From NCBI RefSeq assembly GCF_963676685.1, contig NC_092355.1, positions 40,610,001 through 40,674,000 on the forward strand: a DNA stretch of 64,000 nucleotides, written 5' to 3'. A model generated the notes under the pieces. That model saw nothing but the letters and a program-made list of their open reading frames with translations, ran no database searches and had not been told where the DNA came from. Shown piece after piece: positions 11,336 to 57,753 of this stretch. Source of the DNA: Mytilus edulis. Its lineage: Eukaryota. Each line of letters begins with the position of its first letter. The first letter of the stretch is position 1. Both the position numbers and the translations under genes were made by a program.

Positions 11336-12139
11336 AGACAATAACTGTTTAGTGTCTTTAAATATCAGCTGTATTTGTACGAGGCTAGGAAACAAGGTGT
11401 ATGCGAGCTTTTAGCGATTTATTACACCTGTTTCGAGCCGAGTACAAATACAGCTGATATTTAAAGACACTAAACAGTTATTGTCTTTATCCTGCAATTA
11501 ATTCTGTATATTATTTGTGTTTTGAAAGACACAAAACACATGTTTTGCATTTATTTTCGATTGAAAATCCCTTGAGGCCCGTGTAGTAATACGATACAGT
11601 AATCACACATTCAGCTGAAGACGGGGTCGCAAAAAAAGAATCTCGAATGGTCAACAATAATACATCGCTCAAGGTGAATAATTATCTATTTTAACATAAC
11701 AACTAAATTTAACGGGAAAAACAAATAACAAAACACTGTCCAATTTGAAACAGTAGTGTATGAGTTGTCATACGCTTCAGACTCTACATTCACTAAACAT
11801 GCATGCTGAAATTGACATGTTTGTTTTTGTTACACAATCCTACACATTCAAGTTTTGAAATCAATAGTTGTCATCGTAGTAAAGACTGCTGTTCATGTGT
11901 GTATGTTATCAGAAAATTGGTGTGATTCTTATTGCTCTAAAGAAATGATTGAAAACAAACCGAACGTTTAAAAGTAATCGTTAATCCGCAATACACATTC
12001 TGAGGTCACGCAGGTTCATACAATATTCAGTCCGGCAGTGGGCGGAGCTTTTAGGCGATATCTGTATAGTATACAGATACAGCATAGCGATATCTGTAGG
12101 GCTGTGTCTATATAGTAGAACACCCAATTGCAGGATAAA
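11336..12139 (-). mobile_element. Hairpin-terminated non-autonomous element (E1)
   Basis: Perfect 45 bp inverted repeat 11336-11380/11442-11486; 14 bp IR TTTATCCTGCAATT at 11486-11499 and 12126-12139. Confidence 0.75.
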
Positions 12140-12357
12140 TTTTGATAATATATTTAATTGATACAATAAAATTTATAAAATTTTACAGACTATAATTTAA
12201 TTATTTGCTTATGAGAATAACCATGTTGAATATTGGTAAACTACGTTGAATTCATTATATTTGTGGCTTGATAAATAACTTATAATTCAGAATGATTGAT
12301 GCTAGTCTACAGCACGACAAAAAAGTTTGAATTTTTATACACTATCAATACCATTAA

Positions 12358-12555
12358 GAAGTAAAATAACAAAAATACTGAACTCCGTGGAAAATTCAAA
12401 ACGGAAAGTCCCTAATCGAATGGCAAAATAAAAGCCCAAACACATCAAACGAATGGATAACAACTGTCACATTTCTGACTTGGTACAGGCATGTACAAAA
12501 TGAAGGATTAAACCTGGTTTAATAGTGCCAAACCTCTCACTTGTACAACAGTTAC
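12358..12555 (+). repeat. Dispersed repeat family AAGTAAAATCACAAAAATACTGAACTCCGAGG; other copies near 500-600 (-), 38545-38795, 39115-39225, 40055-40530, 55108-55352 (-)
   Basis: At least six mutually alignable copies with one shared end and variable truncation at the other. Confidence 0.8.
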
Positions 12556-13419
12556 GTGACTTTAGCTGACAGCATATTACCCTTCGATTCAGTAATCAAT
12601 ATATAATTTCAAATAGACTTTTGACTCATTCAATTTTTCTATTAATAACACAAAAACAAAATAAATAAATGCACAATCGTTATTTTCATTCTCCTCCTTA
12701 TATTCATAGCAATCTAACATAAAGAAAATTTATGAAACCATGCATCTACACATAAAAACCAATCTTTTGCCGTTATGAAATACTTAATAGTGTACTAACA
12801 ATTATAAGCACTGTGATTGAAACCTACAAGAAGGGTTTTCATGTGGAAATAAAGAGCGCAAATCTCAGCAGATTCTTCCTTTGGAAACCTACAAGAAGGC
12901 ATTCCATGAGAAAATTAAGAGCTCAAATCCCAGCGGAGTCTATGACGAAATCGAAAAGTACTGATATATATTATAACCGATATAATTGATCATTTGATTA
13001 CAAATGACCACGAAGAAGTAAGCAATAGTAAGAATTCTTGACTGGTAGAGCAGAATCTGTGAAAGCTAACAAAATCAAATATTGGAAAAATATATCAGTT
13101 TTTTAGTCGACAATATCTAATTTTATTTTTGTTTAGTATACATTTAAAAAAAAATCTATAAAATTTCGATCAGTGATTTTTGTTTGAAGCGTGTGTTGAA
13201 ACGTAGGAAATTGAATAAAAAAAACCATTGTATCTGAATTTGTATGCTATGTCTCATAATATTTTAAAAAATTATTAAGTAAATCTTATTCAAAAAATTC
13301 AGGCACAAATGGCGGATTATGGAATACTGTGGATATAGGGGTCTACACCTTTCAAAAAAAAGAATCAAAAGGGCATTTGAAAAAAACTATTCTATCCGTT
13401 AGAACTTTATATGGTCTCA

Positions 13420-14598
13420 TCAATTTCTACAACATAGTTGTTTGCATGAAGACCTAAAGTCCGTGTCGAAAATCAAATATATGACAGGATTAACAGCAGT
13501 ATTTAAAAGATATCCTCTGTAAAAACATAAAGCTATGAAGTATTCCACATCTGTTAACTCATCCCAGAAATTAGATATAACAGATCCTGCAATCATCAGG
13601 GCAAATCTAGGAAGATAAGAAATACAAGATAAAATCGCTATCAGGAAAAACATTATAAAGAATCGGTGTTTGTGCATTATTCGACATAGGATTTGAACAG
13701 TTGTTGATTTCCGCCTTGTACGGATTTCAGCGGGAACAGTTGATTTGTTCTCCTCGATTGTTCGTTCTCCCTCATTAGTCTGTTGTAGGTTGCTTGTTGT
13801 TGTTGAATCCAGATTTGTGCTGTAAGATTCAGCATCAGTGTAAGTTGATCCATCTGGATTGTTTGTATTTCCTAAACCCTGTTTTACATTGACGTTTTGT
13901 CCATAATTATTTTTCTTTCTAACAGATTCTTTCTTATAAATGATACGAAGTATTACAGAATATAATGAAATGAGTGCAAAAATCCCACACAAACTTGTCA
14001 ATAATAATGTTACTGAATAACCAAATAGTAAATCTCGGCTCACATTTGTCACAGCTCCGCAATTATACCCCGTTATTGTTCTATTGTTGTATTTCAATGG
14101 AACCTCAGCTTCGCCGTACAAAAATAAACACGGTATTGATATAATTATAGATCCAATGATGATTGCTGTAATTGTCAGTCGTTTACTTCTTAGGCTCATG
14201 GAAGAGTTTAATAGTCGACTAACCTTTATATACCGTTGCACAGCAATTGCTAATAGCAACAGAGCCGAAATTAAGGCAATTGAATGATTTAAACTCCAGA
14301 TCAATTTACATATCAAGTCATTTCGAAAATTTAAAGGATTAAAGTTCAAAGAAATGAGAAATGATGCGCCAGTACTACATGTTATAATATCAACAAAAGC
14401 TAAACATGGAATGAAATATCTGTCGTCCGTTTTTGATTTAAGTTTGAATGTATAAACGTACAAAACTAAGCCATTTCCAGCGAGGCTGGCGAATAGAAAC
14501 ACAAATAACAGTACAGTGTTTGGTATTAATAACTTAATCATGGCATTGTTAAGTTCCTTCAGATAAATGTTGCTGTGGCTTTCGTTTGAAAAATACAT
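13420..14598 (-). CDS. Class A orphan GPCR, peptide-receptor-like, 392 aa (GPCR-2)
   Basis: GNGLV (TM1), LAFVD (TM2), ICK...IAVQRY (TM3), GYNC (ECL2), SYLPR (TM6), VNPVIY (TM7), helix 8 DTDFR followed by Cys residues. Confidence 0.95.
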   Translation of the reverse strand: MYFSNESHSNIYLKELNNAMIKLLIPNTVLLFVFLFASLAGNGLVLYVYTFKLKSKTDDRYFIPCLAFVDIITCSTGASFLISLNFNPLNFRNDLICKLIWSLNHSIALISALLLLAIAVQRYIKVSRLLNSSMSLRSKRLTITAIIIGSIIISIPCLFLYGEAEVPLKYNNRTITGYNCGAVTNVSRDLLFGYSVTLLLTSLCGIFALISLYSVILRIIYKKESVRKKNNYGQNVNVKQGLGNTNNPDGSTYTDAESYSTNLDSTTTSNLQQTNEGERTIEENKSTVPAEIRTRRKSTTVQILCRIMHKHRFFIMFFLIAILSCISYLPRFALMIAGSVISNFWDELTDVEYFIALCFYRGYLLNTAVNPVIYLIFDTDFRSSCKQLCCRN

Positions 14599-14621
14599 CC
14601 TTATTGTTGGAATCTAGAGAT

Positions 14622-15294: not shown

Positions 15295-15524
15295 CTTTTC
15301 AGCTCAAGTTTTAATCGTTTGCTTCTCAATAGTCAACTGATCTTAATATGCCGTTTTTCCTTTGTTATCTATGTTTCAATTCAGTAGCTCTTCTTCGTAG
15401 AGAGACTGTCGTGATCATTTCATAGATTTTAATGGACGGTCCTTTAAAAGCAGGAAACGTCTATGCAACTGAGATAATTGACAACGATTAAATTTATGTT
15501 TCCTGTACTTCCTTTTTAAATTTT

Positions 15525-17362: not shown

Positions 17363-17412
17363 TTTAAATTATAATCCGGGTACCTTTGATAAATATTTAC
17401 ATCCCTGGGTCG

Positions 17413-17465: not shown

Positions 17466-20400
17466 AGCACGTCGGTGTTCACGTGAATATCAATTATATG
17501 GTCATTTTTATAATTTTTTGTAACAAAACTTTGAATTTTTAGAAAAAGATTTTCTTATCCGAGGAATATATTATCTTAGCCGTATTTGGCACAATTTAAA
17601 TACTGTAATTTGTGCATTTACGATATCAAATAGAAAATTCCGTTTGTCCAGAGATTACGACAGTATTTAAACAAACAAAGGTAGATGAAAAAAACTTTTA
17701 CAGGTATTCTATGTATTTATTTTTTTTCGTGGGTAACAATTTTGTAGATTGAAGAAAACTTGATGTGGATACTTGATTCTATGTTTTTCCAAAATTCTGC
17801 ATATACATGTAATCGTACAGCAATTTCGCAACTCGTTGAACATTTAAATTCATGTTCTCAATGTTCCCACTAAATCAACGAAACAAAATCCACAGTAGTT
17901 TAATACATCATAATAGATAACTGTTATTTTGTTGTTTACTTCGAGATTTTAACAAAACGTCATTTTACAAACTAAGCCGAATTGGATTGGCTATGTACTA
18001 AATATTTGTCTGTAATGGTGTTCTAGGTCGCCCCTAAGTACCAGACGTGTTTGGAACACATGGAAGTCCTTACACATGATCATTGACATTGTTAATCAAC
18101 AGCCCAACGAGCAGGATGTTACAATATAAAAAGGAAGATTTGGTGTAACTGGTTATCAAATAAATCTCCACCAGAGACCACATGACGTATTAGCTAGCAA
18201 TTATTGATCTCCGTACGGCCTTCAATAATTAACATAGCCAATACCCTAGACTAGTTCCAGATTGCAATATTCAGTATGTTACACATATACCAATATAACT
18301 CATGAGAGGGTATGGCTTATAGCTAATACCTGGAACGTAGTACCGGGAACCAGGAAACCGATACCGTAAAATCAGCTGTAAATGGTTAAGCCAGAGTCTT
18401 TGAACAAATGTCATTACAAATTTGGATTAAAAGTATACATTTTATTTTATTTTTATTTATTTACTATTTTTTTGGGGGGAGCAGATTTGAGTTATGTGTA
18501 GTCTTTTACCGTGCCGAGATGAATCTATATTATTAAACGTAGTGTTGGTCATTCAGATGAAAACGTGTAGGCATGTATGAGTTAACTGTCTAAACAATTA
18601 ATGAATTATATATCAGTCAACATAAATTGTTTATCATAATAATTGCTGGATGAGGAAACCGCTACTTAATGACTACATTTTAAAAAAGAATCTTTCGAAA
18701 ATATTGTGATTTATAAGTGCAATATAGACAATATTGCACCTTTGAAATCACAATATTTAATTTGATTTACATTCCATATCACTACACAAAAGGAAAGGAC
18801 TTGTAAAAAAATAAATCGGACAAAAATTCAGGAAATCTGTATAGACTTTTTGTCTCACTTGTATTACATGCATAATGCTTCATTCCTTATTGAGCAATGT
18901 TCAATGGGTAAAAGTATAACAACAGTTATAAGATTTCTTTGCATATACAAATAACGCTGTATATGATGTATTTGTGTATGCCTCAGACACAAATGCTGGA
19001 AAGGATTTGGAATCCATATTTTTTTTAAATCATATCAAATTAATTTCATATTTCAAGAAACTATACGTATATTGTTTTTATACTGAAATCGATAAAAAAT
19101 TAAAAATTTTTAAAAATATGTAACAAATATTGTTAAAAAAAAAAGTGTTTGGAATTTCCCTCTTGGGGTACCATTTTGGGGTATTCCCTATGACCGTAGT
19201 ACAGGCGGTAGGACAATGACATTTTAAGGAATTAGAAAGAGAAAATGAACTTAATTAATAACATCTAATAAACATGGTATATAAATTACCAATTTGAAGA
19301 CATAACAAGTTTAAATCCATAAAAGTTTGATCATTTTTACTACACGTTGTTGATGAAATACAGTAGTTCCGGTAAGAAGGCGGGGCTTATAGGTTAGTTG
19401 AGGTCATTGACGTATAAAGCTAACGTTTATACGTATAGCTTTATATGTATAGTAAAATAGCTTATTGCAGTATAAATATGTTTATTTGTTTGTATTCAAT
19501 TACAGAAAACGGAGTTTTGATAAAAAGCCATCATTAAATTAACTGTTAATACCAAAATCTTTCAATAGAAATGTTATCTCCCGGCTCAGTGTTTCTTATG
19601 TTTTTTATTGTTTTCAATGTTCATCATATCTGTTTTGAATTGGCCAACTAACTGTTTAGATGCGGGGCGCTAATGGGTGGTCTTTTTTTAGACGAATCGC
19701 GTTTTTGTCAAATAATATGCCTTTCAGCTTTTTAACCACTGGGTCGATGCCACGGGTTATGGACTTTTCATTCTCGTCAGAAGCCTTGCATTGACATTTG
19801 ATATTATACAAAATACTATTGACTTGACATATCAACGATATAAGGATGAGGCTTAGAAAAGGAGCAATGCGAGGCACATTTGAGCTTTTCCCCGTGTCTT
19901 GCCGAATCCTTATACTGTCGGAAACAATAACAGGTTGAAAACCGAGCTTTTTTTCAAGAGGTCGTATGAATATTTAAATATAATTTCGGCAACTTGTATT
20001 TAAATATTCATGAGTAATAGTGATATCGGGTCAGTGACAGTATATGACATGGAAATATACAGTTAACTACTCAAATAGAACAAGTGCAGTATAAATTACT
20101 TTATAATATTTCAGTTGTTCTTACTACTGTGTTTTTGATTATGTCGGTATATAAGAATAATGTAGTACAAAAGCAGTTTAACTAATCCAATTATAAGCTG
20201 AGTAAATTGATATTTTTTCGTTTTTATAAATGTTGGCAACAATAATTTACGATTTTTAAATCTCTTAAATCTATTTAGAAGGCAAATTAAGGTTTCAAAA
20301 ACCGACACATTTGCATTGAACATTGTTCAGCTCCAACAGTAGACTGGCAAGTGTCTTTTGACTTTATTTATTCTACCATCATACAAAACTATAAATTCGA

Positions 20401-24861: not shown

Positions 24862-26049
24862 TTAGTTCCTGATACAGAGACTTCTACACTCTTTCTTGAA
24901 AGAAGTATCGAAAACCGAATAAACAACTGGATTTAAAATGTTGTTTAGTAAATATGCTCTGTATAAAAAAAGACAAAAGCTGTACTGACGAGTTGTCAAC
25001 GTTTGCCAAAAATTAATGTCAGCTGACTCTATAATCATAATAATGATTCTCGGAAAATAGGATACGGCAAATAAGGCTGTTACAATTATAAACATGACTG
25101 ATATTTTATACTTCCGTATCATGCATCTTAACACTTTTCCTAAGCTACTTCCTTGTTCCCTATTTATAGTATGTCCAGTCGTGTTATTAAGGTCGTTACA
25201 ATTGTGTGTGCTTTGACTATCTTCTCCGATATCACTGCTACTTTCAAAATGTTGTGGGTCGTGTTCTGACATTTCTGATATTTTATAAGATTGTGATGTT
25301 TCTTCGTTTTCTTTTTGATTACTCTTCTGTTCAGTTTTCCTCATGCTCTGATTTGACCTCTTCTTTTTCCAAAATGATTCCTGCTTATAAATTGTCTTCA
25401 TGATCAAAAAGTATAAGATCGATATTGTTAGGATACCAGTAAAACAGAAAAACAAGAGGAACACGGAATACCCTATATCATATCGTCTATCGATATTTGA
25501 ATCGACAGTACATCGATAAACTGTAATGTTGATACCATCGTTTTCAATATATTCATCATCTACCCCGTAGAGGAATCCACTAGGAACTACTAAAAGTATT
25601 GAAATGACTATAATCAATTTGATGGCAAAACGCTTACTGTTAATAGTCATGACTGATCTAAATGGTCTGCAAACTTTAATATATCGTTGAACGGCTATGG
25701 CAACTAGCATAAGTCCTGAACTAATCGATGTAAATTTATTCACAGTCCACATTAGCTTACAGATTAGGTTACTTCGGAATGTAAGTTGATTAGTATTTAC
25801 CGCAATTGAAAATGATGCACCAATTATACAGGCTATCATATCCATTAATGCTAAGAACGGAATAAAGTATCGGTCGTCTGTTTTTGATTTAAGCTTGAAT
25901 GTATAAATGTAGAGCACGAGTCCATTTCCAAATAATCCTGCTATCAAATACATTGCAAGTATAACTATGTTAGGAATAAGCGAAACAAGTTTATCATTAT
26001 TCAGTATTTCCAGATGATCTACAAATATTGCTTGTATTGAGGAATTCAT
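24862..26049 (-). CDS. Class A orphan GPCR, paralogue of GPCR-2, 395 aa from first ATG (GPCR-3)
   Basis: GNGLV, LALMD, ICK...IAVQRYIKVCRP, SYFPR, LNPVVY. The track starts at GTG 26070; the first in-frame ATG is at 26049 (MNSS). Confidence 0.95.
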   Translation of the reverse strand: MNSSIQAIFVDHLEILNNDKLVSLIPNIVILAMYLIAGLFGNGLVLYIYTFKLKSKTDDRYFIPFLALMDMIACIIGASFSIAVNTNQLTFRSNLICKLMWTVNKFTSISSGLMLVAIAVQRYIKVCRPFRSVMTINSKRFAIKLIIVISILLVVPSGFLYGVDDEYIENDGINITVYRCTVDSNIDRRYDIGYSVFLLFFCFTGILTISILYFLIMKTIYKQESFWKKKRSNQSMRKTEQKSNQKENEETSQSYKISEMSEHDPQHFESSSDIGEDSQSTHNCNDLNNTTGHTINREQGSSLGKVLRCMIRKYKISVMFIIVTALFAVSYFPRIIIMIIESADINFWQTLTTRQYSFCLFLYRAYLLNNILNPVVYSVFDTSFKKECRSLCIRN

Positions 26050-26148
26050 AACTCCGTCTTTTGTATTCACAGTCTCGCCAAAATGTTACAAACTCTTATT
26101 GGGTAGTTTTCAAACAATCGGCTAGTATTCATTCCTTGATATTACAAC

Positions 26149-31101: not shown

Positions 31102-33434
31102 TTTATTTAAAGCACACTGTTTATCACGAAACTAAGGAAGTCCATGTCGTCACAGATAATTATGAAATAAGGTGAATATAAGATTTAAAAACACAGGTCG
31201 GTGCACGATTCATTGGCGTTAAAAGATGTTAACTTTCGGGCGAAGAAATAACCTCAAAATATACATTTAAAGAAGAAAAGATACGTGATCAACTACAGAA
31301 ACACACGATTAATACCGTACAGTTTGTTTTTTTTTTTTTTCTTTTTTTTGCTTTATTTTTTTTTCAAAAGATATACTGAATCTTTGTACACAACAGTTTG
31401 TAAACAGTAAATTAGAAAAATACCTAACTGAAAATAAAATTCAAATCCTATCTGAAAAGTTTTAAAGAAAAAAAGCGCTGTTATTAGAAACTGTACATTT
31501 TGCACGACATGAACTCAGTACCAATGAGTTTTTAATTGAGGCGTGAATAATGTAAAAATTGTTAACGCTAAAATCAGAAAATTAATTTACAGAGGACAAA
31601 ACATAAAGATAATAACAATCAATTAGTAAATAGAACAGACCAACAATTCAACATATAAACCTTGCACAAACACCACATTGTCGACCATGTAGTATTGATT
31701 AGTATCCAAAATTGGAATTAATTATCCAACAAAAGACAACTTTCGAGTTCGATCCATTTCCGTCAAAAACTCTGGTTTTAGTGAACGTCACTTCCATTCC
31801 AATGTTGAGCGAGTGGTTGGAAAACTATATTTATATATTGTACGAATTATTCGGCAAATTGAATTTTCAAAATTGACAATCAGCACTGCTGTCATTAGGG
31901 AATTGTCATTAGGTACCAACAGAACAACCATTATTTCTAGTTTATCCTGCACAATGACGATTACTTAGACGCTTGATGAACGTAAAAAGTGCAGGAATAC
32001 AGACGATCCCTTCTATCTGGTAAATGACGTCATAAAGGCGCGCATAATTGTCGATTTTTTTGCGGTATCTCAGAGCATTGTCAAGTGCAATTTATTGTAA
32101 TCGTCTAAAATAAATAACAGGTAATTTCAAGTGATAAGTGGCACTTTCAATTATTAAATGTGAATCTACATATATTTCTTTTTTTAATACTGATATGTTT
32201 ATTGCAAATCTGAATATGATGTACCTTGTATAAACCGGAGAGTTATACACAAGGGCCCCGTGTTCATACTGATCAGTCGTCCAGGTACAAACAATATAGG
32301 ACTCTACTCAAATAAAATATATTTTCCTTTTTTTGCAAATAAGTTACATAATCTAATTCTTAACGAAAGAATTATTTACTTTATTAAACATACTGTGGTT
32401 TTTGAAGGATAACTTTCTAGAACGTTTGAGACAAACCTGATATGGACAGACAATACGTTAATATATGATGTAACAAAACATTGGGTGGATTACATGTATG
32501 TTATAATACACGTCTTCCTTTAGTTTATCATTGTTTATGAAAAAGAAGTTTCAACAGACATTGTTATCATGATGATGAACGATTGAAATAAATAAATTAA
32601 ACACAGTTGTTATTGTTGGCATTTGTTTCGTATAGACAAATGCAAGTAGGTTTTTAATACTAACGTTATTGAAGAGTTGGTCATTTTTATAGGCCACTAG
32701 TCTAAATATCACAAGTTAAGATAGTCGGTAAGATAATATCTTTACATAGTGTGCTAGTGACCTATTACGATATTTATGGGGTCAGTAAATTCCATATATA
32801 TCGTATTAGGTCTCTAGCACACTATCTCACTAATTATATATATCAAAAGGGAAGTTATAAGGCTAGCACATTAATAACCACTTATCTGGTAAAATTTCCT
32901 AAATCAGGAACTTTCTATTCCATAGATTAAAGTTGCACAAAATCCAGTTTTTCTTGATAAATTGACTAAATAATATACTTGATATTGCGTGTATTATAAA
33001 TATTCAGCTCACGGTGCAACGGTATAATTTTCTGGGCAATTAGGATATAATCTGTTACATGCAGAATTTAATTATTTAATGTGTTCAAAGTATATTTTAA
33101 CGTTCATTTTGATATAAAAAAAATTCAATAAAAAATACGATTTATTTTCCGGTGTGTTACTTATAAACACGTTATATTTATCATATAAGATTAAGTTGTT
33201 AACAATCAACTAAAGGGAAGTAGCTAATACACGACTAAACATGAACTAGTCATAGTCAGTTATCTTCTCTTTCACCATGGGTAAACGGTTTTCCATTTCA
33301 AAACATGATTTACGATTCGAACGACTTTTTAATGCCTCGGTGTTCTCTGTGACTACTGTTCATTTCATTTTGTTTATTTTCAGTGTTAAATATCCATTCC
33401 CTTTTTTCACTCTTTGTGTGCCTGTTCTGTTTAA

Positions 33435-34545: not shown

Positions 34546-36101
34546 TTACGATTGAACTCGGGACCATACCACATAACGCAACTGCTCGTCAAAAGTATCT
34601 TATTTCTTCAGGAACCAAGCGCCCTTTATCGATCCATCTTCATGTAAAACAGGAACAATAGTAATTGTTATAACTGACTCATATTTAATCATATCTTGCA
34701 ACTAATAAACGCTTGTAAGGTTCTTGAGCCCTATTATACTAGTAAGTAGCACTTAAATCGATCGAAACAAGACACTGCTTTTATTTAAAGCCCTGTTTAT
34801 TACAAAACTAAAGAAGTTCATATCGTCACAGATAATTATAAAATAAGATAAAAAGAAGATTTGAAAAAAAACAGAAATCTTCAACAGACATTGTAACCAT
34901 ATGATGAACGATTGAAATAAATAAATTAAACATGTTTAAAGCTAATCAGTTGTTATGGTTGGCATTTGTTTTGTATAGACTAATGAAAGTAGGTTCTTAA
35001 TACTAACGTTATTGAAGAGTTGGTAACTTGCATAGTCGATAAGATAAATTCTTTACATAGTGTGCTAGTGACCTAATACGATATAAATGGGGTCAGTCAA
35101 TTCCATACATATCGTAGTAGGTCACTAGCACACTATATCATTAATAATATATTTCAAAAGTTATAAGGCTAGCACTTGACATTAATATCCACTTATCTTA
35201 ACAAAATTTCCTAAATCAGGAATTTTCTATTCCATAGATTGAAGTTGCAAAAAATCCAGTTTTCTTGATAAATTGACTAAATAATATACTTGATATTGCG
35301 TGTATTATAAATATTCAGCTCAAGGTGCAACGGTAAAATTTTCTGGTCAATTAGGATAATTGTAACCATTTAAGATTTTATTAAACTTTTTAACTAGAAC
35401 CTATAATACATACAATATATTAATAAAGGCAGTTATTCCATTTTGAAAGGCCTTCTGGACATCTTAACAGGCTACGAGTACACCATATAAAATTCTTACG
35501 AAAATCACCTTTATTCAGAATTAATTCATATTTTCTTTGAGTTTTTTAAACTGATTCACCAAACTTGCGCAGTTGTTGTTCTGTATAATATGCTTCCATT
35601 TGTCCAATCACACTGATCATGGCTTTCGGTCATAAAACAGAAGTACAAATTCAGTATTTGTATTGGTTGATTCGACGATAATCGTACTCGAAATCTTTTT
35701 TGACCAGGAAAGGGTACACAAAATAGACACTATCTATATTACGATAAACACGCTCTTTTTTACAGACTTCGAGAGTTTTTGGTCAAGTTAAGAAGATTTT
35801 CATGATAAGAGTTTTCGACACACTTCGACAAACCGCACCTTAAATCGCTAAACCATTTAGTGCGACTTCTTGTATAAAATTATTCGTGAACGGAAGGAAG
35901 AAAATTACATGTTCATCTTAAAGTACATATATTGTTGATTATGTACAGGACTGACATTCAAAAACCGCAGACCAGAAAACTGTCAACAGTTAAAAAAACA
36001 TGTTAGACAGATACTTACTATTTACTTCGAAGTGAGATATGTTTGCTACATAAACTGTGGAGCAAACAATTGGCCAGAAACTTTGATTAAGATCAGGAGA
36101 T

Positions 36102-37517: not shown

Positions 37518-37978
37518 TTGTAAATATCTGCAATGATTCAAATATTCATGTATCCTTTAATAAATGATAAATAAAAACAGAATATCTTTAAAAAAAATAG
37601 TTTGATATTAATGGACGTACCGGTGAAATTATATAGCTTCATTTAATAATTTTAAAGTTTTATTGTTCATTTTCTTGCGTTGCGTCTCCTCAAAAGCTCA
37701 CCAAACAGATAAAGCTTAAAATTTGATACAAGACTATTATAGTAACCCTGTAGGCCTAGGCATGTGCTGATGTTATTGCAGTGATATGGCCTATTTATCA
37801 TTTACGAAGAAATGTGTATCTGTCGCCTTTTTTTAACCTGACTAAATTGCAACCTTATTGTCATCTTGACAGTCGATTTTACAAGACAAATTTCCGATAA
37901 ACATAGATTTTAACTCATATACGTCTCTAAGAAAAAAGGCTGTATATTTCATTAACTAGAAATCAGCCCATAGACATT

Positions 37979-38236
37979 ATTTAGTCATGTGACCGTGACG
38001 TCATCAACGTTTGTTCATGGTTTTCTACGGTTTAAAATGGAATTTAGAATTAAATTATAAGAAATGCTTTTCCATTTAAAGAATGACTGAATTATTTTTT
38101 CTGTCTATTTGAAATATCATAAAAAAAAAATGTGGTGCACACTGTTAAATGACCCGCTACGCGCGTTATTCAGTGTGCACCAAATTTTTTATTTTATTTC
38201 TTCATAGACAGAAAAAATATTACAGTCATTCCTTAA
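37979..38236 (+). mobile_element. Hairpin-terminated element (E2)
   Basis: Imperfect ~75 bp-arm inverted repeat 38076-38236 with apex CGC-TAC-GCG. Confidence 0.65.
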
Positions 38237-41200: not shown

Positions 41201-41881
41201 TACAGGCTTTAGTAACCATGATACCTCAAGTTTTCAAAATATTCTAGAGTAACACCAAATAAAAAAGGATTGGTGATTTGAAACACCCAAGATATATGTT
41301 TAGGACTAAGAAACTTGTTATTGCCATGAAATGAAGGATTAATTTCCTACAACTGTCAAATTCAATGGAATACAAATTATCGACTCTTTTTCGTATACCA
41401 CCGGTTTAGACGTACTATGATTTGGTGGTATTTCGCCATAATAAAACATAATTGAAAGTTAAGATTAAAACGGAAGACATTTGATACTGAAGTAATTGAC
41501 CTGTTTTCCCTTTAAACTACGCATCTTCCTTCTCAATCAGCAGGCGTGTACTTCCTTTATTTCGACCACTTGTAAATCTAAGTACTCATTTAAAGTGGAC
41601 TTGTGCATTATGAGAAGCTAGCACGTAGAATAAATTTGAAATATCTATTTAAAGATTCATGATGTATGAGCGATATTAATAATTAAAAATATGTTAAATG
41701 TTGAATATCATAATAAATCGCCTTGGAATTGCGTTTTATATTTTAGAAAGTTGTTAGCTATTTAATTCGTATGGATTTACTTTTATTGACTACTGATTTG
41801 AAGAGTAAATAGTGGTCAAAATAGGACCGCCAACGACCACATCTACATTGAAAACCAGCTGAAATTTGAAATTCACTGAGG

Positions 41882-43345: not shown

Positions 43346-43847
43346 TTATAAAAAAAAATGTATTTCTAGTAAAGTAATGTTTTTTTTTCAATTTCAGATT
43401 TTTTTTAAATAATTTATTTGTATACTTGTTATATTTTTTTAGGTTTTTTTCAAGATTTAAAATAAACTTGAGTTATATTGATATTTACCAATGTACCCTT
43501 TTAAGACTAGTTCATTTGTAGTACAAAACAAATTTGGTCATTACGATCTGAAACAGTCATCCAATATTAAATATATATATACGCTGAAGTTAGGAGTATG
43601 GAAAAAAAACAGAAAGTTTTATACTGGTTAAATGTAGATGATATCGTGCTCTTTACAGAACTAGATATAACAAAAAATAAAAAAGACTATGCAAAGTTCT
43701 AATAATTATAAGAATTAAACGTTGAATCAACAGAAAAAAAATATTTGATAAAAACATTTTGCATAAAAAAATGATACAATATACTCCAAAAAAATGTTTT
43801 CAGCAAACAAACGGAAATCATTGAGCAACTAAACTTGTTTCCTTGCA

Positions 43848-45045
43848 ACATAACAAAAGAGACATCAACATAACAAAAGAGACATCAACATAACAAAAGA
43901 GACACCAACATAACAAAAGAGACATCAACATAACAAAAGAGACATCAACATAACAAAAGAGACATCAACATAAAAAAAAAGACATCAACATAACAAAAGA
44001 GGCATCAACATAACAAAAGAGACATCAACATAACAAAAGAGACATCAACATAACAAAAGAGACATCAACATAACAAAAGAGACACCAACATAACAAAAAA
44101 GACATCAACATAACAAAAGAGACATCAACATAACAAAAGAGACATCAACATAACAAAAGAGACACCAACATAACAAAAGAGACATCAACATAACAAAAGA
44201 GACACCAACATAACAAAAGAGACATCAACATAACAAAAGAGACATCAACATAACAAAAGAGACATCAACATAACAAAAGAGACATCAACATAACAAAAGA
44301 GGCATCAACATAACAAAAGAGACATCAACATAACAAAAGAGACACCAACATAACAAAAGAGGCATCAACATAACAAAAGAGACATCAACATAACAAAAGA
44401 GACACCAACATAACAAAAGAGACATCAACATAACAAAAGAGAATAACAAAAGAGACATCAACATAACAAAAGAGACATCAACATAACAAAAGAGACATCA
44501 ACATAACAAAAGAGACATCAACATAACAAAAGAGGCATCAACATAACAAAAGAGACACCAACATAACAAAAGAGGCATCAACATAACAAAAGAGACATCA
44601 ACATAACAAAAGAGGCATCAACATAACAAAAGAGACATCAACATAACAAAAGAGACATCAACATAACAAAAGAGACATCAACATAACAAAAGAGACATCA
44701 ACATAACAAAAAAGACATCAACATAACAAAAGAGGCATCAACATAACAAAAGAGGCATCAACATAACAAAAGAGACATCAACATAACAAAAAAGACATCA
44801 ACATAACAAAAGAGGCATCAACATAACAAAAGAGACACCAACATAACAAAAGAGGCATCAACATAACAAAAGAGACATCAACATAACAAAAAAGACATCA
44901 ACATAACAAAAGAGGCATCAACATAACAAAAGAGACATCAACATAACAAAAGAGGCATCAACATAACAAAAGAGACACCAACATAACAAAAGAGGCATCA
45001 ACATAACAAAAGAGACATCAACATAACAAAAGAGACATCAACATA
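43848..45045. repeat. Minisatellite, 20 bp unit CAACATAACAAAAGAGACAT, ~60 copies
   Basis: Head-to-tail array with GACAC, GGCAT and AAAGAC variants and one phase slip near 44441. Confidence 0.97.
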
Positions 45046-45761
45046 AGGTAGCACAATACAAAGATTTTTCATCCCCAATCAGACATCTTTAAACTGATGT
45101 AATTCCACTCATCTTTCTTTAAACTTTATAAATGAGGTACCAAAAGAAAGAAGAAGGATTAATCTTTCAAATTGTGATAATTTCATTATGACATAATTAT
45201 TACATAATTAATTGTTATGTAATTAGTTGCCATTCTGTGATGTCCATACTTGAATGAATTTAGCTTCTTTGTTCTTCATAGCATCCTAAAAAAAAATATA
45301 GATTCTTGCACAACACAGTTTGACCTCCAAAACAGTGTCTTAGATTTTTCCTATTGTATTTCATTCTCTCATAAATCTTCAATGAAGTTTGCAACATCAA
45401 TTCATTAGAGACCACTAAATTCAATTGGGTATAAAATTTGTTCTATTGATGTTTTTGGAAATCTGAGACACAGTTTTGGAGGTCAAGCTGTGTAGTACAA
45501 GAATCTATAAAATATTTTGGGATGCTATGAAGAACAAAGACGCTAAATTCATTCAAGTGTGGACATCACAATATAGCGACTCATTACATAATAATTAATT
45601 ATGTAATAATTATGTCATAATGAAATTATCACAATTTGATAGATTAATCTTTCTTCTTTCTTTGGGTACCTCATTTATAAGATATAAAGAAGGATGAAAT
45701 GAATTACATCAGTTTAAAGTTGTCTGATTGGTAGTGAAAAAATCTTTGTATTGTGCTACCT
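45046..45761. mobile_element. Foldback MITE with ~305 bp inverted arms
   Basis: TA|AGGTAGCACAATACAAAGATTTTT ... AAAAATCTTTGTATTGTGCTACCT|TA; arms about 45046-45351 and 45457-45761. Removing it restores a 20 bp repeat unit. Confidence 0.9.
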
Positions 45762-46126
45762 TAACAAAAGAGACATGTTATCTATTAAATCATTTCCCTC
45801 CAGAAGCATGTTTTTTTTTTCAATTTAAATCAACGACAAATATGTTTTTGCAAAATAAAATACTGCAATACGATATATTGTAACTCCCGTGGTGAAATAT
45901 TTTGTCACTCTCGTTTCAGTGCTAGAATGTATATGTTCATAGTACAACTGTTCTACACCGAGAATCTATACCAGTGCCAGAACACAAACCACCAGTTCAT
46001 AACACTTTCATTAAATGATACTACTTTTTCAATACAGATTTGTTCTGAATGTTGTATTACATACATCAAAGTGAATGTAGGGCCAATATTTCAAATTTGG
46101 ACTTGCAATGATGTGAATATAGGGCC

Positions 46127-46225
46127 AATATTTCCAATACGGACTAGCAATGAATCCTGAATTACATGCACAATATATGTTTACATGTAATTCAGGATTC
46201 ATTGCCAGTCCGTATTGGAAATATT
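46127..46225. repeat. ~43 bp-arm palindrome with a partial upstream duplication
   Basis: AATATTTCCAATACGGACTAGCAATGAATCCTGAATTACATG ... CATGTAATTCAGGATTCATTGCCAGTCCGTATTGGAAATATT. Confidence 0.8.
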
Positions 46226-46822
46226 TGACCGGGCCGAAAAGCAATATAGATCACGTGATTTATATGACCAGGACGACGTAACCAGTATGACACATGCCAT
46301 TTTGGTAGTATAAGGGCTGTTGTAATCATGTTATTTAATACAGCATGTACAGTATGATATAAGCGTACCCAAACTAACATTTTGTATGAGGGTCTAGATT
46401 GAGAATCCTTCAATTCTGTATTCTTTAATCTTTTAACCTATTTCTCTTCATTTTTTTTTTTGTGTTGCCCATTATAATCTTCTCTTCATAATTTAGCACC
46501 CTGTTATTCTCAATTATTTTGGTTCTATTTTCTCTTTTCTTTAAATTTGTTTGGTCATTTATTCTGCAAATTTTGTCCTATATTCCCTTATATCTAAACT
46601 CCTTCTAAACCCTTATGTTTACTAGACTGCGTTGGTGTATAACTTGTAATATCTGTTTTCCACTACAATGTTTTTAAAATGTAATGGCCTCCTGTGTTTT
46701 GGCTTTCATGTCCACTGATTCATTTACATATGTATAATCATATATGATATTGTTCTTATTAAATTCAATGGTATTTCCATAAACTAAATGTAATTCAATC
46801 TGACAAAGTCGTTAAGACTCCA

Positions 46823-48325: not shown

Positions 48326-48726
48326 TAATTACACCTTATGTAGGAATCCTGGGTTTTGATTGGTTGATAGCCAGTGTATTTTTCACCAATTTACTGCTAT
48401 CAAATGAATATCGTTCATTTTTAACGTTGCCGGGGTATATGCAAAAAGGATATGCCTTTTTTACCCTCTCTGCCGTGGTATTTGCCAAAAAATACTCTAT
48501 CCGACTGGACGCTTGTAACGTCACGATCATCAATGCGTTTTAGACATACGGTGTAATTAAACAGATATAGCATGTTCTTGAGGGGTATTTGCCAGCATAC
48601 ATGAGACATGAGGGGTAAAATACCAGTCTTGAGAATGAATTTTCCTCGCCTTACGGCTCGCGAAATTTAACATTCTCTCGACTGGTATTTTTCGCAAATA
48701 CCCCTCCTTAACATGATATATCTGTT
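48326..48726 (+). mobile_element. Hairpin-terminated element (E3)
   Basis: IR TAATTACACC at 48326 / GGTGTAATTA at 48550; GATTGG at 48358; hairpin 48560-48726 with apex GCC-TTAC-GGC. Confidence 0.75.
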
Positions 48727-49905
48727 CAGAATTCTACCATCATAATGTCATATGTAACCTGCAATAAATTAAATATCATTTGATAAGAAATAAATATTAT
48801 AAACTCTGTTTTTGTACAAAAATAGTATATTCATAAAGTTATGAAATGTACTTTAAATCTGTTGAATGCAGTAAATTAATTTGGTATATTTGTTTAAATT
48901 ATATAATTATATGGTTATTTTCATAGTTTAAAAACAAGTCTCAAATGTTTCTTCTATTTCTGTTGTGAAATTCCAAACAAAATATATTTTTTGCCTCAAA
49001 GTGTATTAATAATGCGTCTTCCTTTGCTTATTAAGATGGGTTTTTGTTGGAAACAACTTTTACGTTCAGCCACCAATTGTCACGTGAAAGTATCGGCATT
49101 ACGCCATGTCAGCATCTTTAGTGCTTTGAGAACACGTTCAGGTACCGCATTATTTGAACTGATAGTGTTTATTATTGTTTTATAATAAGTCTGTAATTTA
49201 AGACTGGTTCCGTTTCCTTAATTTTTTTGACTGTGAAAGATGTGTATGTATGACTCAAAACTATAAAATGGAGAGAGCAAGCCCATCTTTGATGTAAAGT
49301 AGTTATTTCATTTATTTGCAACTTCAAAAGAAGTTCTTTTAGTGAAAAAGACCTGATGACAACAGGAAGATATCAATTAGTCAAGATAGTCAATTACGAT
49401 CGTCTGACCCTAATAAACATCTTTTATATCCGACACGCAAAAGTAACCACTTCCTGATTGAATATTGAATTGTGTACATTAACCATGTTCTTGTTGACAT
49501 TTTCATAGTAAAAATAATAACAATTTCCATGAAAGACAAAACATTATGATGTTTTAAATATGAGGATGCATTTTCGACATATTCAACGACAGCAATAATA
49601 AGAAAATTTGCATTTTCAAAGATAGGATTTGATGATTTCGATGGTTCCATGTACCTACCGTGTACAAAGAAACGTGTATATTTAATGTACTTGTGAAAAT
49701 CGTAAACATCACTGAGGAAATGGGATTATCTTAGTTAATAATTAGAAGAAAAAAAACATCAACATCTCAATCCTATATCAAACACTACATATAAACATAA
49801 AAGTTAAACCTTGTTCAGTGAATACGTCATATATTTTTGGGTTTTCTATGGAGAGTACAAAATAAAAAGAAAATGTAAAATTATTGGATTGTAAAGCAAG
49901 TTATT

Positions 49906-51336
49906 ATGAATAATAGCACCAATTTTACGTCTTATCATCTTGACCAGATAAACGACGAAATGGCAATAAATGTACTTCCGGTCATTTTATTAATTTGCAT
50001 TTATATGTTCGTTGGACTATTTGGAAACCTTCTTGTAGCGTACTATTATGGATGCTTCGTTAATCCTTCACCTTCATATTATTTTATTGTAGCCATGGCG
50101 ATTTATGATATTATTTTGTGCTGTATATCTATGCCATTAGAAATTGTGGATCTAAGATTTAGTTATAACTTTCCGAGTGTAATAGCATGCAAAATTCTCC
50201 GGTTTGTGAACTACTTCTCTAGTACTGCGTCTGGATTAGTCTTGATTGCAGTAGCAGTCGACAGATATCGGAAAGTTTGTCAGCCATTCAAAACGCAAAT
50301 TACCATGACATCAGCAAAGATTATCATTGGAGTTTTATGCTTTGCTTCTGTATGTATTGCATGGCCAGCACTCGTTATTTACGACATCAATGTCGTAAAT
50401 ATATCGTCTGCACCAGGTTTGAATGGATACGATTGCACGACGATTCGAAATGAAGAATATAAAGTCTATATATCTATATATAACGGTGTTTGTTTCCTTA
50501 TTTTCATTGGTTGTATAACAACTTTAATCGTTTTGTATATTCTTATTGGAAAGAAATTATGTCATCTCAAAAAGTTCCGATTTTCGGCAACTGCTCGAAA
50601 ATCGGCCAACGTCAACTACACACCGCCTACAAGTGAAAGTGAAATTGATGCAAACTTCAGACGGTTTAAGCCAGTAGTTTATGCTAAACAACCAACAAGT
50701 ACATTCATACCTCTTTTGCAAATTAAAGAAACAAATAGTTTCAGCGATTCCACTGCACAGCAATCAAACAAGAAAGTAAATGCTATAAATTCTTCAAATA
50801 TTAAAAACAAAGTCCATGAAACAGCACTAAGCAAGGAAATTGTTACTCCTTTGCATTATAAAAACGAAATTTCATCACAAGCTAATCAAGAACCAAAGGG
50901 GTTATATACATCTGATTTATCAGATTCTGACTCTGACACGAGAGGTACGAAATTGAAGAAGAAAAGAAGCATATTGCATCGACGGAAGAAGATCCGTGAA
51001 CAGTACATACATTTGAGGAAGTACACGTTGTTAATGTTGTCAGTTAGTATGGCATTTATACTGAGTTTCCTCCCCTATCTTGGATTAATGACATGGCGGA
51101 CATTGGCGCTAAAATATGAAAGGGAAATCCTATCGAAAGTAGAACTAATTCTTTTCAATATATTCCTCCGCTCATGGATGTTGAGTAGCGTGGTGAATCC
51201 GATCATTTATGGCTTCTTTAATGCTGACTTCAGTACATTTGTTTGTGGTCGCCTGAGAAGAATGCTCTGTTCCCAATGTGTAAAACAGGCAGATGTCGAC
51301 AACGAAACAAGAATAGAATCGTCGCATACATTTTGA
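49906..51336 (+). CDS. Class A orphan GPCR, 476 aa (GPCR-6)
   Basis: GNLLV, AIYDI, ACKILR, VDRYRKVCQP, AWP, GYDC, SFLPY, VNPIIYGFFN. Confidence 0.95.
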   Translation: MNNSTNFTSYHLDQINDEMAINVLPVILLICIYMFVGLFGNLLVAYYYGCFVNPSPSYYFIVAMAIYDIILCCISMPLEIVDLRFSYNFPSVIACKILRFVNYFSSTASGLVLIAVAVDRYRKVCQPFKTQITMTSAKIIIGVLCFASVCIAWPALVIYDINVVNISSAPGLNGYDCTTIRNEEYKVYISIYNGVCFLIFIGCITTLIVLYILIGKKLCHLKKFRFSATARKSANVNYTPPTSESEIDANFRRFKPVVYAKQPTSTFIPLLQIKETNSFSDSTAQQSNKKVNAINSSNIKNKVHETALSKEIVTPLHYKNEISSQANQEPKGLYTSDLSDSDSDTRGTKLKKKRSILHRRKKIREQYIHLRKYTLLMLSVSMAFILSFLPYLGLMTWRTLALKYEREILSKVELILFNIFLRSWMLSSVVNPIIYGFFNADFSTFVCGRLRRMLCSQCVKQADVDNETRIESSHTF

Positions 51337-51379: not shown

Positions 51380-51745
51380 ATAATTACATTAGATGTATGT
51401 TTCATTATAATACGTTATTCTGATTGGCTAACTAGCAATCTCGTGATATTCCTTAATCAATTGCATTACACAATGCAACTTTTCATTCTTGATGACACGA
51501 GGTCTCACAATAAAGTGCACAGGTAAATGAAATAAAAACTTGATAAAAGGCGTGTTTTCATAATCATATAGGTAAAAATGTAATTATAAGTATTGAATGC
51601 TCTTTTTTGTAAATTTATAGGGTTGTAAAAGCGTTGACCGTGCGCACATTTAGAGTATGAAGCGCTTCCGCGCTTCATACAAAATGTACTTCGGTCAACG
51701 CTTTTACACCCCAATAAATTTACAAAAAAGAGCATTCAATTCTTA
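51380..51745 (+). mobile_element. Hairpin-terminated element (E4), starting about 44 bp after the GPCR-6 stop
   Basis: IR ATAATTACATT at 51380 / AATGTAATTAT at 51577; GATTGG at 51422; hairpin 51587-51745 with apex GTATGAAGCGC-TTCC-GCGCTTCATAC. Confidence 0.8.
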
Positions 51746-51810
51746 AATGAAATTGTCCTCAGCAATATATAAAACTAACATACTACAGTGTTATTTGATA
51801 GACATGTATA

Positions 51811-55900: not shown

Positions 55901-56483
55901 ATTCACAATTAAGAAGTTGTTTGTATAGATCGCAACTGAACAATGGAACAATCGTTTATTTTTAAGGTGGGTTGGTTTTATGGTTTTTGTCTGAGTCAGA
56001 AAAAAAACACTTTTTCTTAAAGTTTTTAGACGCTATCAATCAAATTATATTGTTTTCCATAATTTAACACTATATTTAAGGTATCATGCAGAAAATCTGG
56101 ATTCTGAATATATATATATTGTCATCTGTTTGACCACAGGAGACAGGAGACAGGAGACAAACAACATCCCCCTTTTGAAGTTGAATGGTCGTTCCCTTTA
56201 ATAGCAATTTATTAACTGGCCTTTAAAGATCAATATCATATGCACTAGACCTATGTCAAACAAAACTAACATTAAAAGAGTGTAAACAAGAAAAGATTAT
56301 TTAATTAAACCTAATTAATGTGGTGCGTTTGAATGGTTTTTTTTTTCTCCACCTTTTATTTACTTGTCTCCATAAAGAAAGTTTAAATCAAAACATTCAA
56401 ACATTAAGAAGTATGCATGTTACACTGCAGGAGCTATATACTGTCTTGACGGTCAATTTTACATCTATTTAAAAAGACTGTCT

Positions 56484-56533
56484 GCAGAAGACACATCGTT
56501 TCGTCTACATAAAAAGTCTCTTCAGAAGCGCTC
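56484..56533 (-). ncRNA. Degenerate hammerhead-like motif
   Basis: Minus strand GAGCGCTT CTGAAGA GACT ttttatgt AGAC GAAA CGATGTG TC; core intact, stems decayed. Confidence 0.5.
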
Positions 56534-56689
56534 GAATCAAAACGGTGTGGAAACTATCTCAAATACAAAATACCACGCAACCAGACAAGAGATAAACAAA
56601 ATGGTGGAAATGGACATTGTGTACTTGCTGAATGAATTAAAACCGTAGGAATTGGAAAACAAAATAATCAATTTTGGTGAAATATTTGG

Positions 56690-56900
56690 TACTATATTAT
56701 TTAGCAATTATTGAGATGTTTTTATTATTGCGAAAAATGCGACAGCGTTATATTCACAATAATTAAAACTCTCATTTTATAATTTTTTATATCAATTGAA
56801 CAGGATTTTTCTCAATATCTCAAAAGTTAAAATCGCATTTCAGTCCAAAATGACAAAATCGCAATAATTACTACACGCAATAATTTCTGAATTTACAGTA
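56690..56900. mobile_element. Degenerate TA-flanked MITE
   Basis: Right end CGCAATAATTTCTGAATTTACAG|TA; decayed left end TA|CTATATTATTTAGCAATTATTG. Confidence 0.5.
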
Positions 56901-57135
56901 ATAAAAAACTAATTGTCCAAGTATTGAAAAATATTCTACCTTTCTTTGCACTCGCAAGATGTGCAATATCAGTATGAAATACTGATCGCAATGAAATTTC
57001 TTAATAATTCTAGTAGTACAATAACCCCAAGTTTATAAAAGCGTGATACTATGGTCAGTTTCAGTAAGACACGACCCCATGCAGCTAGACACTATTTGCT
57101 TAAACTTACAGATTTTAATGATAAACCATAAGTTT

Positions 57136-57753
57136 ATTTATCTTACCTCCTATACATTTCTAGGAATGTGATTGGTTAAAAGCGCCCTCGTGGAGACCGT
57201 GTATATTTGATATTAGGTTAGTAGAGAGGCGGGGCTTATCTCATACACGGTTAGTAGTGGAGTTACGTCCCTTTATATTCCATATTAGGTAGTAGGGAGG
57301 CGGGGCTTATTTCATACACAGTTAGTAGTGGTGTTACGTCCCTTTATAAAAACAAAACGGTACTGAGAAAAAAATCGTAAAGGTTTGAACAGACGAAGAC
57401 ATTGATGATTAAGATTGAATAAATTCATCTAACACATTTAACCCTCACAAGTTTTTATTGTTGGTATCTGTTTTTGTAGGATCAATGGAAGTAATTTCTT
57501 AATACTAACAGTATTGAGGAGTTGCTCATTTTGATAGGTCTAAATTTCACACGTTAAGATAGTCGGTAAGATAAATTCGTTACATAGTATGCTAGTGACC
57601 TAATACGGTATATATGGGGTCAGTAAATTTCATATGGGGATTCGAGCTTCGCTCTCACCCCATATGAAATTTACTGACCCCATCGCTCGAATCCCCATAT
57701 GAAATTTACTGACCCCATATATACCGTATTAGGTCACTAGCACACTATGTAAC
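57136..57753 (+). mobile_element. Hairpin-terminated element (E5); truncated relatives near 32655-32830 and 34995-35140
   Basis: IR ATTTATCTTACC at 57136 / GGTAAGATAAAT at 57565; GATTGG at 57170; internal ~70 bp direct repeat; hairpin 57579-57753 with apex GAGC-TTC-GCTC. Confidence 0.85.

Follow-up and report, generated by a model that had tools for sequence, protein, structure and literature searches.

Five elements (E1–E5) in a 64,000-nt stretch of the Mytilus edulis genome, hereafter the window, combine short inverted repeats (IRs) with a long hairpin at one end, which raises the question of what they are and what moves them. The original prediction had taken them for sequence-unrelated members of a new class of non-autonomous transposons. 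Our analysis supports a different placement: E1–E5 are high-copy, gene-less transposons, of which E3 and E5 share both ends with elements coding for a DUF3504 recombinase, and such a recombinase probably mobilises each of the five in the form of a single folded DNA strand.

Five families with a common layout

The positions of the elements in the window are as follows.

11334..12138, minus strand: E1, non-autonomous element; outer IR 12126–12138, inner IR 11486–11499, hairpin 11336–11486
32605..32835, plus strand: partial E5-family copy, hairpin shortened
34901..35149, plus strand: second partial E5-family copy, hairpin shortened, in a local duplication of the 32605..32835 copy
37962..38236, plus strand: E2, 5'-truncated copy; inner IR 38048–38058, hairpin next
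48326..48728, plus strand: E3, non-autonomous relative of the CryptonA-type family F453; outer IR 48326–48335, inner IR 48550–48559, hairpin 48560–48726
48358..48363, plus strand: GATTGG (reversed CCAAT) box of E3, its position matching F453 and F472
51380..51746, plus strand: E4, young non-autonomous element; outer IR 51380–51390, GATTGG 51422–51427, inner IR 51577–51587, hairpin up to 51744
57138..57758, plus strand: E5, non-autonomous derivative of F299; outer IR 57138–57147, GATTGG 57170–57175, inner IR 57565–57574, hairpin 57575–57757

The coordinates bear out the shared blueprint. Exact IR pairs were found in E1 (14 bp, 11486–11499/12126–12139), E3 (10 bp, 48326–48335/48550–48559), E4 (12 bp, 51379–51390/51577–51588) and E5 (12 bp, 57136–57147/57565–57576), and in all four a hairpin lies directly outside the inner copy. 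These hairpins measure 150–180 bp, adjoin the inner repeat and extend to the element end. Element ends were set from family copies and fall 1–2 bases beyond the hairpin stem; the bounds first proposed for E1, E3, E4 and E5 give way to those listed. The E3 copy in the window carries a 22-base extra piece, the E5 hairpin has an internal duplication in the window copy, a 71-bp unit is present twice in E5 (57202–57348), and the E1 family ranges from 785 to 854 bp. E2 had been described as a hairpin only. This holds for the window copy, which lacks the first 53 bases of its family and thus the outer IR and GATTGG, but not for the family, which has both. In E3–E5 the GATTGG motif starts where predicted (48358, 51422 and 57170). 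The same motif also occurs near both ends of an inverted-repeat element at 45044–45763, so it is not restricted to this group.

All five elements belong to high-copy families, and the shared layout is not due to chance: first-look genome searches gave 1110–3022 candidates each (candidates, not copy numbers), and at least 40 matches per element were scored, mostly near full length. Among the matches scored for E4 were 40 copies with 95–100% identity. The description as sequence-unrelated stands insofar as self-BLAST of the window gave no alignment among the five. It fails at the ends, where E1 and E5 begin with TTATC, E2 and E4 begin with ATAATT and finish with TTAA, and TAATTACA is common to E3 and E4; judged by these words, the ends are akin despite the lack of mutual alignment.

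Insertion into a palindromic target

The insertion point is one edge of a 6-bp spacer within a palindromic target, reading TAW-N6/WTA for E1, E2, E4 and E5 and ATTT-N6/AAAT for E3 and F453 (slash, insertion point). Symmetry between the left flank and the reversed right flank reached its maximum at a spacer of 6 in all five families (r 0.56–0.72), and the pooled flanks of E1, E2, E4 and E5 gave r 0.88 (n = 103). Copies of F453 and F299 occupy the same kinds of target as E3 and E5. This geometry is that of a tyrosine recombinase.

Empty sites were sought for comparison, and 22 matches, minus five self or tandem matches and one neighbouring E1 end, left 16 independent sites. Joins were clean in 14 of the 16, with the spacer derived from the target in 14/14 clean ones; the two left over were the independent E1 matches, which have gaps at the joint, so that a clean empty site is missing for E1. 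Target-site duplication was rejected, since it did not exceed the shuffled expectation and the empty sites were clean. Direct repeats of the 4–6 bp type known from CryptonF and CryptonS, here 6 bp, were likewise discarded: the target spacer equalled the last six bases of the element at 6/6 positions in just 1/133 copies, most copies matching at 1–4/6. A donor-derived coupling sequence was rejected as well, because the spacer comes from the target.

Recombinase-coding partners

Long coding copies with the same ends, which the original prediction had led us to expect, were found for E3 and E5. F453 (2.1 kb, L191:4061–6169) has both ends in common with E3 (identity of 88% in the initial 58 bases and of 92% in the final 161), and F472 shares the E3 ends too. 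Four copies of F453 exist, with protein identities of 97–99%. Its single long plus-strand frame of 451 aa (L191:4351–5703) exceeds the Pfam thresholds of both DUF3504 and Phage_integrase, and the catalytic R, H-x-x-R, H and Y motifs are present in three of the four copies. The protein model comes closest to Cre (Foldseek E 2.9e-9, rank 1), with the integron integrase only at rank 31; a sequence search of the PDB returned just a weak XerA match (E 0.19). F299 (2.6 kb, L299:3317–5930 and L313, two copies) has both ends in common with E5 (91% at one end, 89–92% at the other). Its catalytic motifs are spread over two predicted exons, either of which alone falls below the Pfam cut-off, and the predicted GT-AG intron is retained in both copies. 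Neither partner codes for a reverse transcriptase or a DDE transposase. Among 12 multi-copy DUF3504 families, nine end at a long hairpin and seven also carry the partner repeat at the far end; the other three (FB, FE and FF) are without a terminal hairpin. Raw RNA reads from three runs covered the F453 frame patchily (depth 0–4, one run zero), most reads at F453 coming from flanking repeats and short derivatives.

E1, E2 and E4 had no coding partner in the 160 recombinase loci searched (from 430 and 811 first-look candidates); near these loci their ends belonged to whole short copies, with no gene between such ends. A weak hairpin likeness links E1 to L340 (77% over 62 bases). The genome also has 96 other Phage_integrase-family matches, mostly outside the partner search, and E1, E2 or E4 may have a partner from another recombinase group. 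What appears to tie these three to the E3/E5 group is layout, end words and target only.

On sequence grounds, E3 and E5 are non-autonomous CryptonA-type elements. The claim of a new transposon class falls, since partners coding for a DUF3504 recombinase belong to the described CryptonA group; the label follows from the DUF3504 match and from the use of DUF3504 for CryptonA in the available text of PMC13465315. As for the driver, a tyrosine recombinase is favoured by the DUF3504 partners and the target geometry, and the proposed HUH alternative is not.

The GATTGG motif probably represents a CCAAT box from the promoter of the recombinase gene, retained in the derivatives. This reading is not general, because the gene runs the opposite way with respect to the hairpin in two coding families and the box is absent from most of them.

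A joint hairpin with one favoured strand

The inner repeat and the first hairpin arm are complementary to the right end joined to the left end. In each of the five families, joining the ends restores one long imperfect hairpin that has 1–2 additional bases at the joint. The two strands of these hairpins are not equivalent. On the bottom strand (as seen with the hairpin drawn at the right), 29 families together showed 30 tandem G·A pairs versus no tandem T·C, and 41 G·T versus 16 A·C; fold energy was lower for the bottom strand in 25/29. This bias agrees with the earlier suggestion that the hairpins point to a folded single strand. Tandem G·A pairs occur in 16 of 20 sequence clusters, and those below the apex may be of common origin. 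The minus-strand apices in the window are those reported, namely GC[GTA]GC in E2, CC[GTAA]GG in E3 and GC[GGAA]GC in E4; GC[GAA]GC of E5 was taken from a typical family copy, and E1 lies outside the proposed loop rule, as had been stated. The rule itself describes a tendency rather than a law: the predicted bottom-strand fold has G..A loops in 18/29 families and none in 11/29, and F260 has GAA on the opposite strand.

Tyrosine recombinases cleave either strand at the spacer's 5' edge, so the G·A-rich strand would be the bottom, cut strand. The right end retains the family's own six bases in 132/133 copies and the top-strand product was seen in 0/133. For E3 and E4 these samples comprise the highest BLAST scores, a choice that enriches for copies sharing the query's right end. 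Bystander right ends were concordant in 23/24, a small sample that includes one unexplained E1 end. This footprint fits, indirectly and on a partly biased sample, the exchange of one strand only.

Proposed mechanism and alternatives

We infer a single-strand intermediate and propose the following course. The bottom strand would fold, either on its exposure at a replication fork or within a cruciform, and the inner stretch could then act as a splint that brings the two element ends together. The recombinase would cut and rejoin the bottom strand only, releasing a circle of single-stranded DNA whose hairpin resembles an attC site. An exchange between this circle and the bottom strand of a duplex target would follow, and replication would complete the insertion.

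The strongest competitor, which we still consider unlikely, is the classical CryptonA route through a double-stranded circle with exchange of both strands, where the hairpin would only offer a series of binding sites or play an accessory structural part. This is the model in print, going by the available text of PMC3212892 and PMC13565253, and both the Cre-like protein model and a palindromic target with a 6-bp spacer, which suits any tyrosine recombinase, are compatible with it. However, two-strand exchange requires matching spacers or yields two product types, whereas most spacers match at only 1–4/6 and the second product type is missing from all 133 copies. Moreover, the restriction of G·A pairs and G..A loops to a single strand would go unexplained if the hairpin were a set of duplex binding sites. 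Exchange of one strand on ordinary double-stranded ends, with the hairpin serving later (e.g., in priming or protecting the copy), would account for the single product type and has a parallel in the SE elements, where according to part of PMC9345347 tyrosine recombinases make a one-strand circle. We regard it as distinctly improbable: SE elements carry a 6-bp piece of donor flank and are without such a palindromic target, while the spacer here is target-derived at every clean empty site, and this route would not account for the copy of the joined ends carried inside the element.

There is very little to recommend the idea that DIRS-type retrotransposons carry E1–E5 along as non-autonomous passengers. 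The inner stretch can pair with both outer ends and in this does resemble the internal complementary region that closes the reverse-transcribed DIRS copy (available text of PMC13465315), and the 96 further Phage_integrase-family matches leave room for such partners. Yet the coding partners of E3 and E5 have one long frame and no space for a reverse transcriptase, F299 retains its predicted intron in both copies, and, unlike DIRS, our elements have neither reverse transcriptase nor long terminal repeats, their halves being 10–14 bp plus a hairpin arm of 70–90 bp. Least credible of all are Helentron-type (HINE/DINE-1) elements driven by a Rep/HUH helicase, which by the available text of Thomas et al. 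2014 (PMC4067079) resemble ours in short subterminal inverted repeats, a 3' stem-loop, an unmodified target without duplication and, for E5, a central tandem repeat, but differ in a 5–10 bp palindrome 8–35 bp from the end and insertion at TT, against a tenfold longer, terminal hairpin abutting the repeat, flanks that are not TT and end-sharing partners that encode a recombinase instead of Rep/helicase. The absence of duplication, the flanks and the partners uphold the proposal that these are non-autonomous transposons distinct from both TIR/TSD MITEs and Helentron-type elements.

The proposed movement as a folded single strand by a DUF3504 recombinase leads to a broader proposition, towards which we lean: animal CryptonA recombinases may be eukaryotic integron-like integrases that read structure (folded bottom strand, sheared G·A pairs, G..A loop, extra joint bases) rather than long sequence, carry out a one-strand exchange at short palindromic targets and leave completion to replication.

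Comparison with known systems

Like the CryptonA elements in the available text of Kojima and Jurka 2011 (PMC3212892), the E3/E5 group with its coding relatives has a DUF3504 recombinase as sole long frame in coding elements of 2–3.7 kb, short derivatives far commoner than coding elements, and no target-site duplication. It differs from them in the split repeat, the long terminal hairpin and the palindromic target. In that text the terminal repeats of animal Cryptons were not found (all n.d. in the table) and the word hairpin is absent; neither hairpin nor palindrome is reported in the accessible part of a 2026 CryptonA paper (PMC13465315). The sequence-level resemblance to integron attC sites (Bouvier et al. 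2009, PMC2727003, available portion) extends to a long imperfect palindrome complete only once the unit ends are joined, families with little sequence in common, bases left unpaired close to the crossover, a preference for one strand and head-to-tail stacking. Unlike integrons, the present system is eukaryotic, its recombinase gene lies inside the mobile unit, its targets are thousands of dispersed degenerate sites instead of attI, and the extra bases are at the joint itself; the partner enzyme is a DUF3504 recombinase, not IntI. The strand-biased, circularising integrative elements (SE) of Vibrio (PMC9345347, in part) likewise have a tyrosine recombinase acting on one strand, as proposed here, but they carry four genes and a donor 6-bp piece, end in 19-bp repeats and lack a hairpin of the attC type.

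What is new compared with the literature searched is thus the end design of split repeat, terminal hairpin and palindromic target: we found no description of it or of a single-strand Crypton mechanism, Repbase, Dfam and subscription journals lying outside the search and possibly holding the families together with remarks on the hairpin. Animal CryptonA elements had been described without recognisable ends (PMC3212892, available text), and the locus supplies exact ends, a target rule and a strand. F453 and E3 add a 451-residue enzyme, predicted to be intact, and its own short substrate. Crypton movement, never shown experimentally according to the accessible text of PMC13565253, thereby becomes a question for bench assays. 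If the mechanism is right, folded single-strand recombination, known from bacterial integrons and phage CTX, would work in animal genomes too; abundant unclassified mussel repeats would gain a class, and many unclassified hairpin-ended bivalve repeats would be recombinase cassettes, among them stacks in which the end of one family adjoins the start of another. Under the same condition, a compact eukaryotic recombinase that inserts at short targets and leaves no duplication could be attractive for genome engineering. The findings are also relevant to the origin of the DNA-binding domain in Crypton-derived KCTD1, QRICH1 and ZMYM2–4.

Beyond the mussel genome, a metagenome scan gave a single 1.3-kb contig without flanks and a viral scan gave no match. 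Proteins related to the recombinase were found in records from oyster, coral, anemone, sea urchin and priapulid.

The five families and recombinase-coding partners of two of them

The repeats, hairpins, GATTGG boxes and apex loops of the five elements E1-E5 were borne out in the window sequence at the positions of the original prediction. A search of the 1.37-Gb genome revealed that each element represents a family (40 scored matches per search), with 1381 (E1), 2065 (E2), 1110 (E3), 2399 (E4) and 3022 (E5) first-look candidates, numbers that do not correspond to copy numbers. Copies were retained if both ends were found and the flanks were distinct, yielding 133 copies from 150 loci; their ends are sharp. 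E2 had been described as a hairpin only; the E2 family possesses the outer repeat and the box, both lacking in the window copy. Head-to-tail contact with another member was observed in 6 of the 133 copies, once across families (E2 then E4). In locus L043, one E3 copy has inserted in reverse orientation into a second E3, the insertion point being a palindrome within its body that has a 6-bp spacer; E3 bears several target-like motifs of this kind.

The search for DUF3504, the CryptonA-type tyrosine recombinase domain, returned at least 150 scored matches in the genome. From this list and a protein search, 160 loci of 8-10 kb each were read. Copy-versus-copy comparison of 12 multi-copy coding families revealed that nine terminate in a long hairpin, and in seven of these the opposite end carries the short partner repeat. 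No hairpin end was seen in FB, FE and FF. Long elements with shared ends and a tyrosine recombinase, which the original prediction had proposed to look for, were found for E3 and E5; no coding partner of E1, E2 or E4 was detected among the 160 recombinase loci. The partner of E3, F453 (2.1 kb, four copies, 97-99% protein identity), shares 88% of the first 58 bases and 92% of the last 161 bases, and its copies occupy the same target as E3. Its 451-aa frame clears the Pfam cut-offs for DUF3504 and Phage_integrase, and the catalytic motifs are present in three of four copies. The best structural match of its AlphaFold model (mean pLDDT 74) was Cre (E 2.9e-9), with integron integrase at rank 31. 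In locus L193, an E3 copy abuts the start of an F453 copy with a base-exact junction. The ends of F299 (2.6 kb, two copies) are those of E5, and the first 148 bases of E5 correspond to the stretch immediately upstream of the F299 start codon; a predicted GT-AG intron interrupts the gene and keeps the frame. E3 and E5 are almost certainly Cryptons, and E1, E2 and E4 very probably belong here too.

In public mussel annotations, P0001, the intact transposon recombinase, is listed as a KIAA1958-like host gene and its close relatives as KCTD1_15. A database protein identical to the recombinase carries the label Mytilus edulis, which marks the genome as that of a mussel. At L201 (3753-9371), L208 (5430-9663) and L340 (1999-7111), the few kb after a recombinase locus contain four to seven hairpins, resembling cassette stacks or nested insertions.

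Target site and insertion product

Flanking sequences departed from randomness. The flanks of E1, E2, E4 and E5 exhibited T-A-W at -9 to -7 on the left and W-T-A at +1 to +3 on the right; the target arms of E3 are ATTT and AAAT. When the left flank profile was correlated with the reversed right profile across spacers of 0-12, all five families peaked at spacer 6 (r 0.56, 0.72, 0.66, 0.72 and 0.67), as did the pooled families minus E3 (r 0.88; next best 0.46), while the mirror placement gave no peak at spacer 6. The usual tyrosine-recombinase site is described as inverted arms flanking a 6-8 bp spacer (PMC3212892). Target duplications of 2-9 bases were no more frequent than by chance in the 133 copies. 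Rebuilt empty sites found a match in the DNA searched in 22 of 133 cases, of which 16 were left after omission of five self or tandem matches and one match to a neighbouring end. Joins were clean at 14 of the 16, the 6-base spacer agreeing at five or six places; both of the two E1 matches were gapped at the joint.

Cleavage by a tyrosine recombinase takes place, on either strand, at the spacer's 5' edge, so that insertion at the right edge indicates exchange of the bottom strand (hairpin drawn at the right), a line of evidence independent of the fold comparison below. Both-strand exchange without matching spacers would yield two kinds of product. The family's own 6 bases were present at the right end of 132 of 133 copies and the other-strand product in none of the 133, with the E3 and E4 samples biased by BLAST rank towards the family right end and those of E1, E2 and E5 spanning wide score ranges. 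Bystander copies in other loci contributed 23 agreeing right ends and one unexplained, a count leaving out nine further matches to inner arms (one judged by eye).

Design of the ends and strand asymmetry

When the left end is appended to the right end, the resulting sequence in each of the five families is the reverse complement of the inner repeat joined to the first arm of the hairpin, except for two extra bases at the joint (one in E5). Because the joined ends complement these segments, a folded strand holds both ends side by side. In a circle, the ends would form a single long, imperfect palindrome whose stem contains the crossover. The integron cassette site attC is described as likewise rebuilt by joining ends, and its strand choice as dependent on unpaired bases (PMC2727003). 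Several coding copies (L190, L196, L203, L215) have lost or collapsed the hairpin middle and kept the outer ends, as expected for an unstable palindrome.

Arms were aligned in 29 families (5 short, 24 near recombinase genes; 20 sequence clusters), all hand-picked for hairpin and partner repeat except the coding family FD, which was taken without the repeat criterion. On the bottom strand of this selection, we counted 30 tandem G·A pairs versus no tandem T·C, 41 G·T versus 16 A·C and 119 purine versus 49 pyrimidine mismatches; tandem G·A occurred in 16 of 20 clusters. The proposed loop rule applied to a majority, a G..A loop being found on the bottom strand in 18 of 29 families. Tandem G·A pairs and G..A loops stabilise hairpins of single-stranded DNA, and fold prediction rated the bottom strand more stable than the top in 25 of 29. 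In F339 and F426 (loci L181 and L186), the recombinase gene is oriented away from the hairpin, in the other families towards it; the fold bias still goes with the hairpin side.

Proposed mechanism

We regard the ends, the target, the partners for two families, the strand asymmetry and the single product type as shown. A fairly likely mechanism is that the bottom strand folds, a single-stranded circle would be released and would exchange one strand with the duplex target, and replication would complete the insertion. The rivals to this route are a classical double-stranded circle, as assumed in a 2026 review that describes the Crypton mechanism as undemonstrated (PMC13565253); exchange of a single strand on ends that stay duplex; copying of the DIRS type; and rolling circles as in Helentrons. 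Both CryptonA and its short derivatives have been described before. Kojima and Jurka found no terminal repeats in animal Cryptons (PMC3212892); a 2026 CryptonA paper describes poorly conserved repeats and reports no hairpin (PMC13465315), and Cryptons do not appear by term search in a bivalve transposon survey (PMC10294476). No description of this end design was found in the full-text literature searched, Repbase and Dfam being outside the scope.

The ATTGG box

In 8 of 19 clusters, an ATTGG motif begins at a distance of 33-44 bases from the left end, most often 33-35, compared with 1.6% expected for an interval of this size. In F453 and F299 the motif is located upstream of the gene, and E5 also bears GC boxes. 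On these grounds, a CCAAT promoter box seems the simplest reading, while the fixed distance to the end hints at a possible second role. In the window, an element with long terminal inverted repeats (45044-45763), adjoined by a 20-bp tandem array (43846-45046), likewise carries GATTGG/CCAATC, set in from either end by roughly 30-37 bases.

Genomic surroundings

Putative G-protein-coupled receptor frames lacking introns lie clustered in the window, which is filled with repeats. Frame prediction yielded seven open frames of 397-519 codons:

3030-4304, open frame
13423-14613, open frame
24865-26085, open frame
36087-37514, open frame
41870-43342, open frame
49879-51333, open frame
60551-62107, open frame

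Judged by sequence, the seven look like rhodopsin-type receptors: both of the two frames scanned matched Pfam 7tm_1, and four of the seven share 65-72% DNA likeness. The window scan also revealed further hairpins:

46122-46230, hairpin
19966-20011, hairpin
18699-18758, hairpin

The hairpin at 46122-46230 is nearly perfect and is preceded by a 42-bp duplication.
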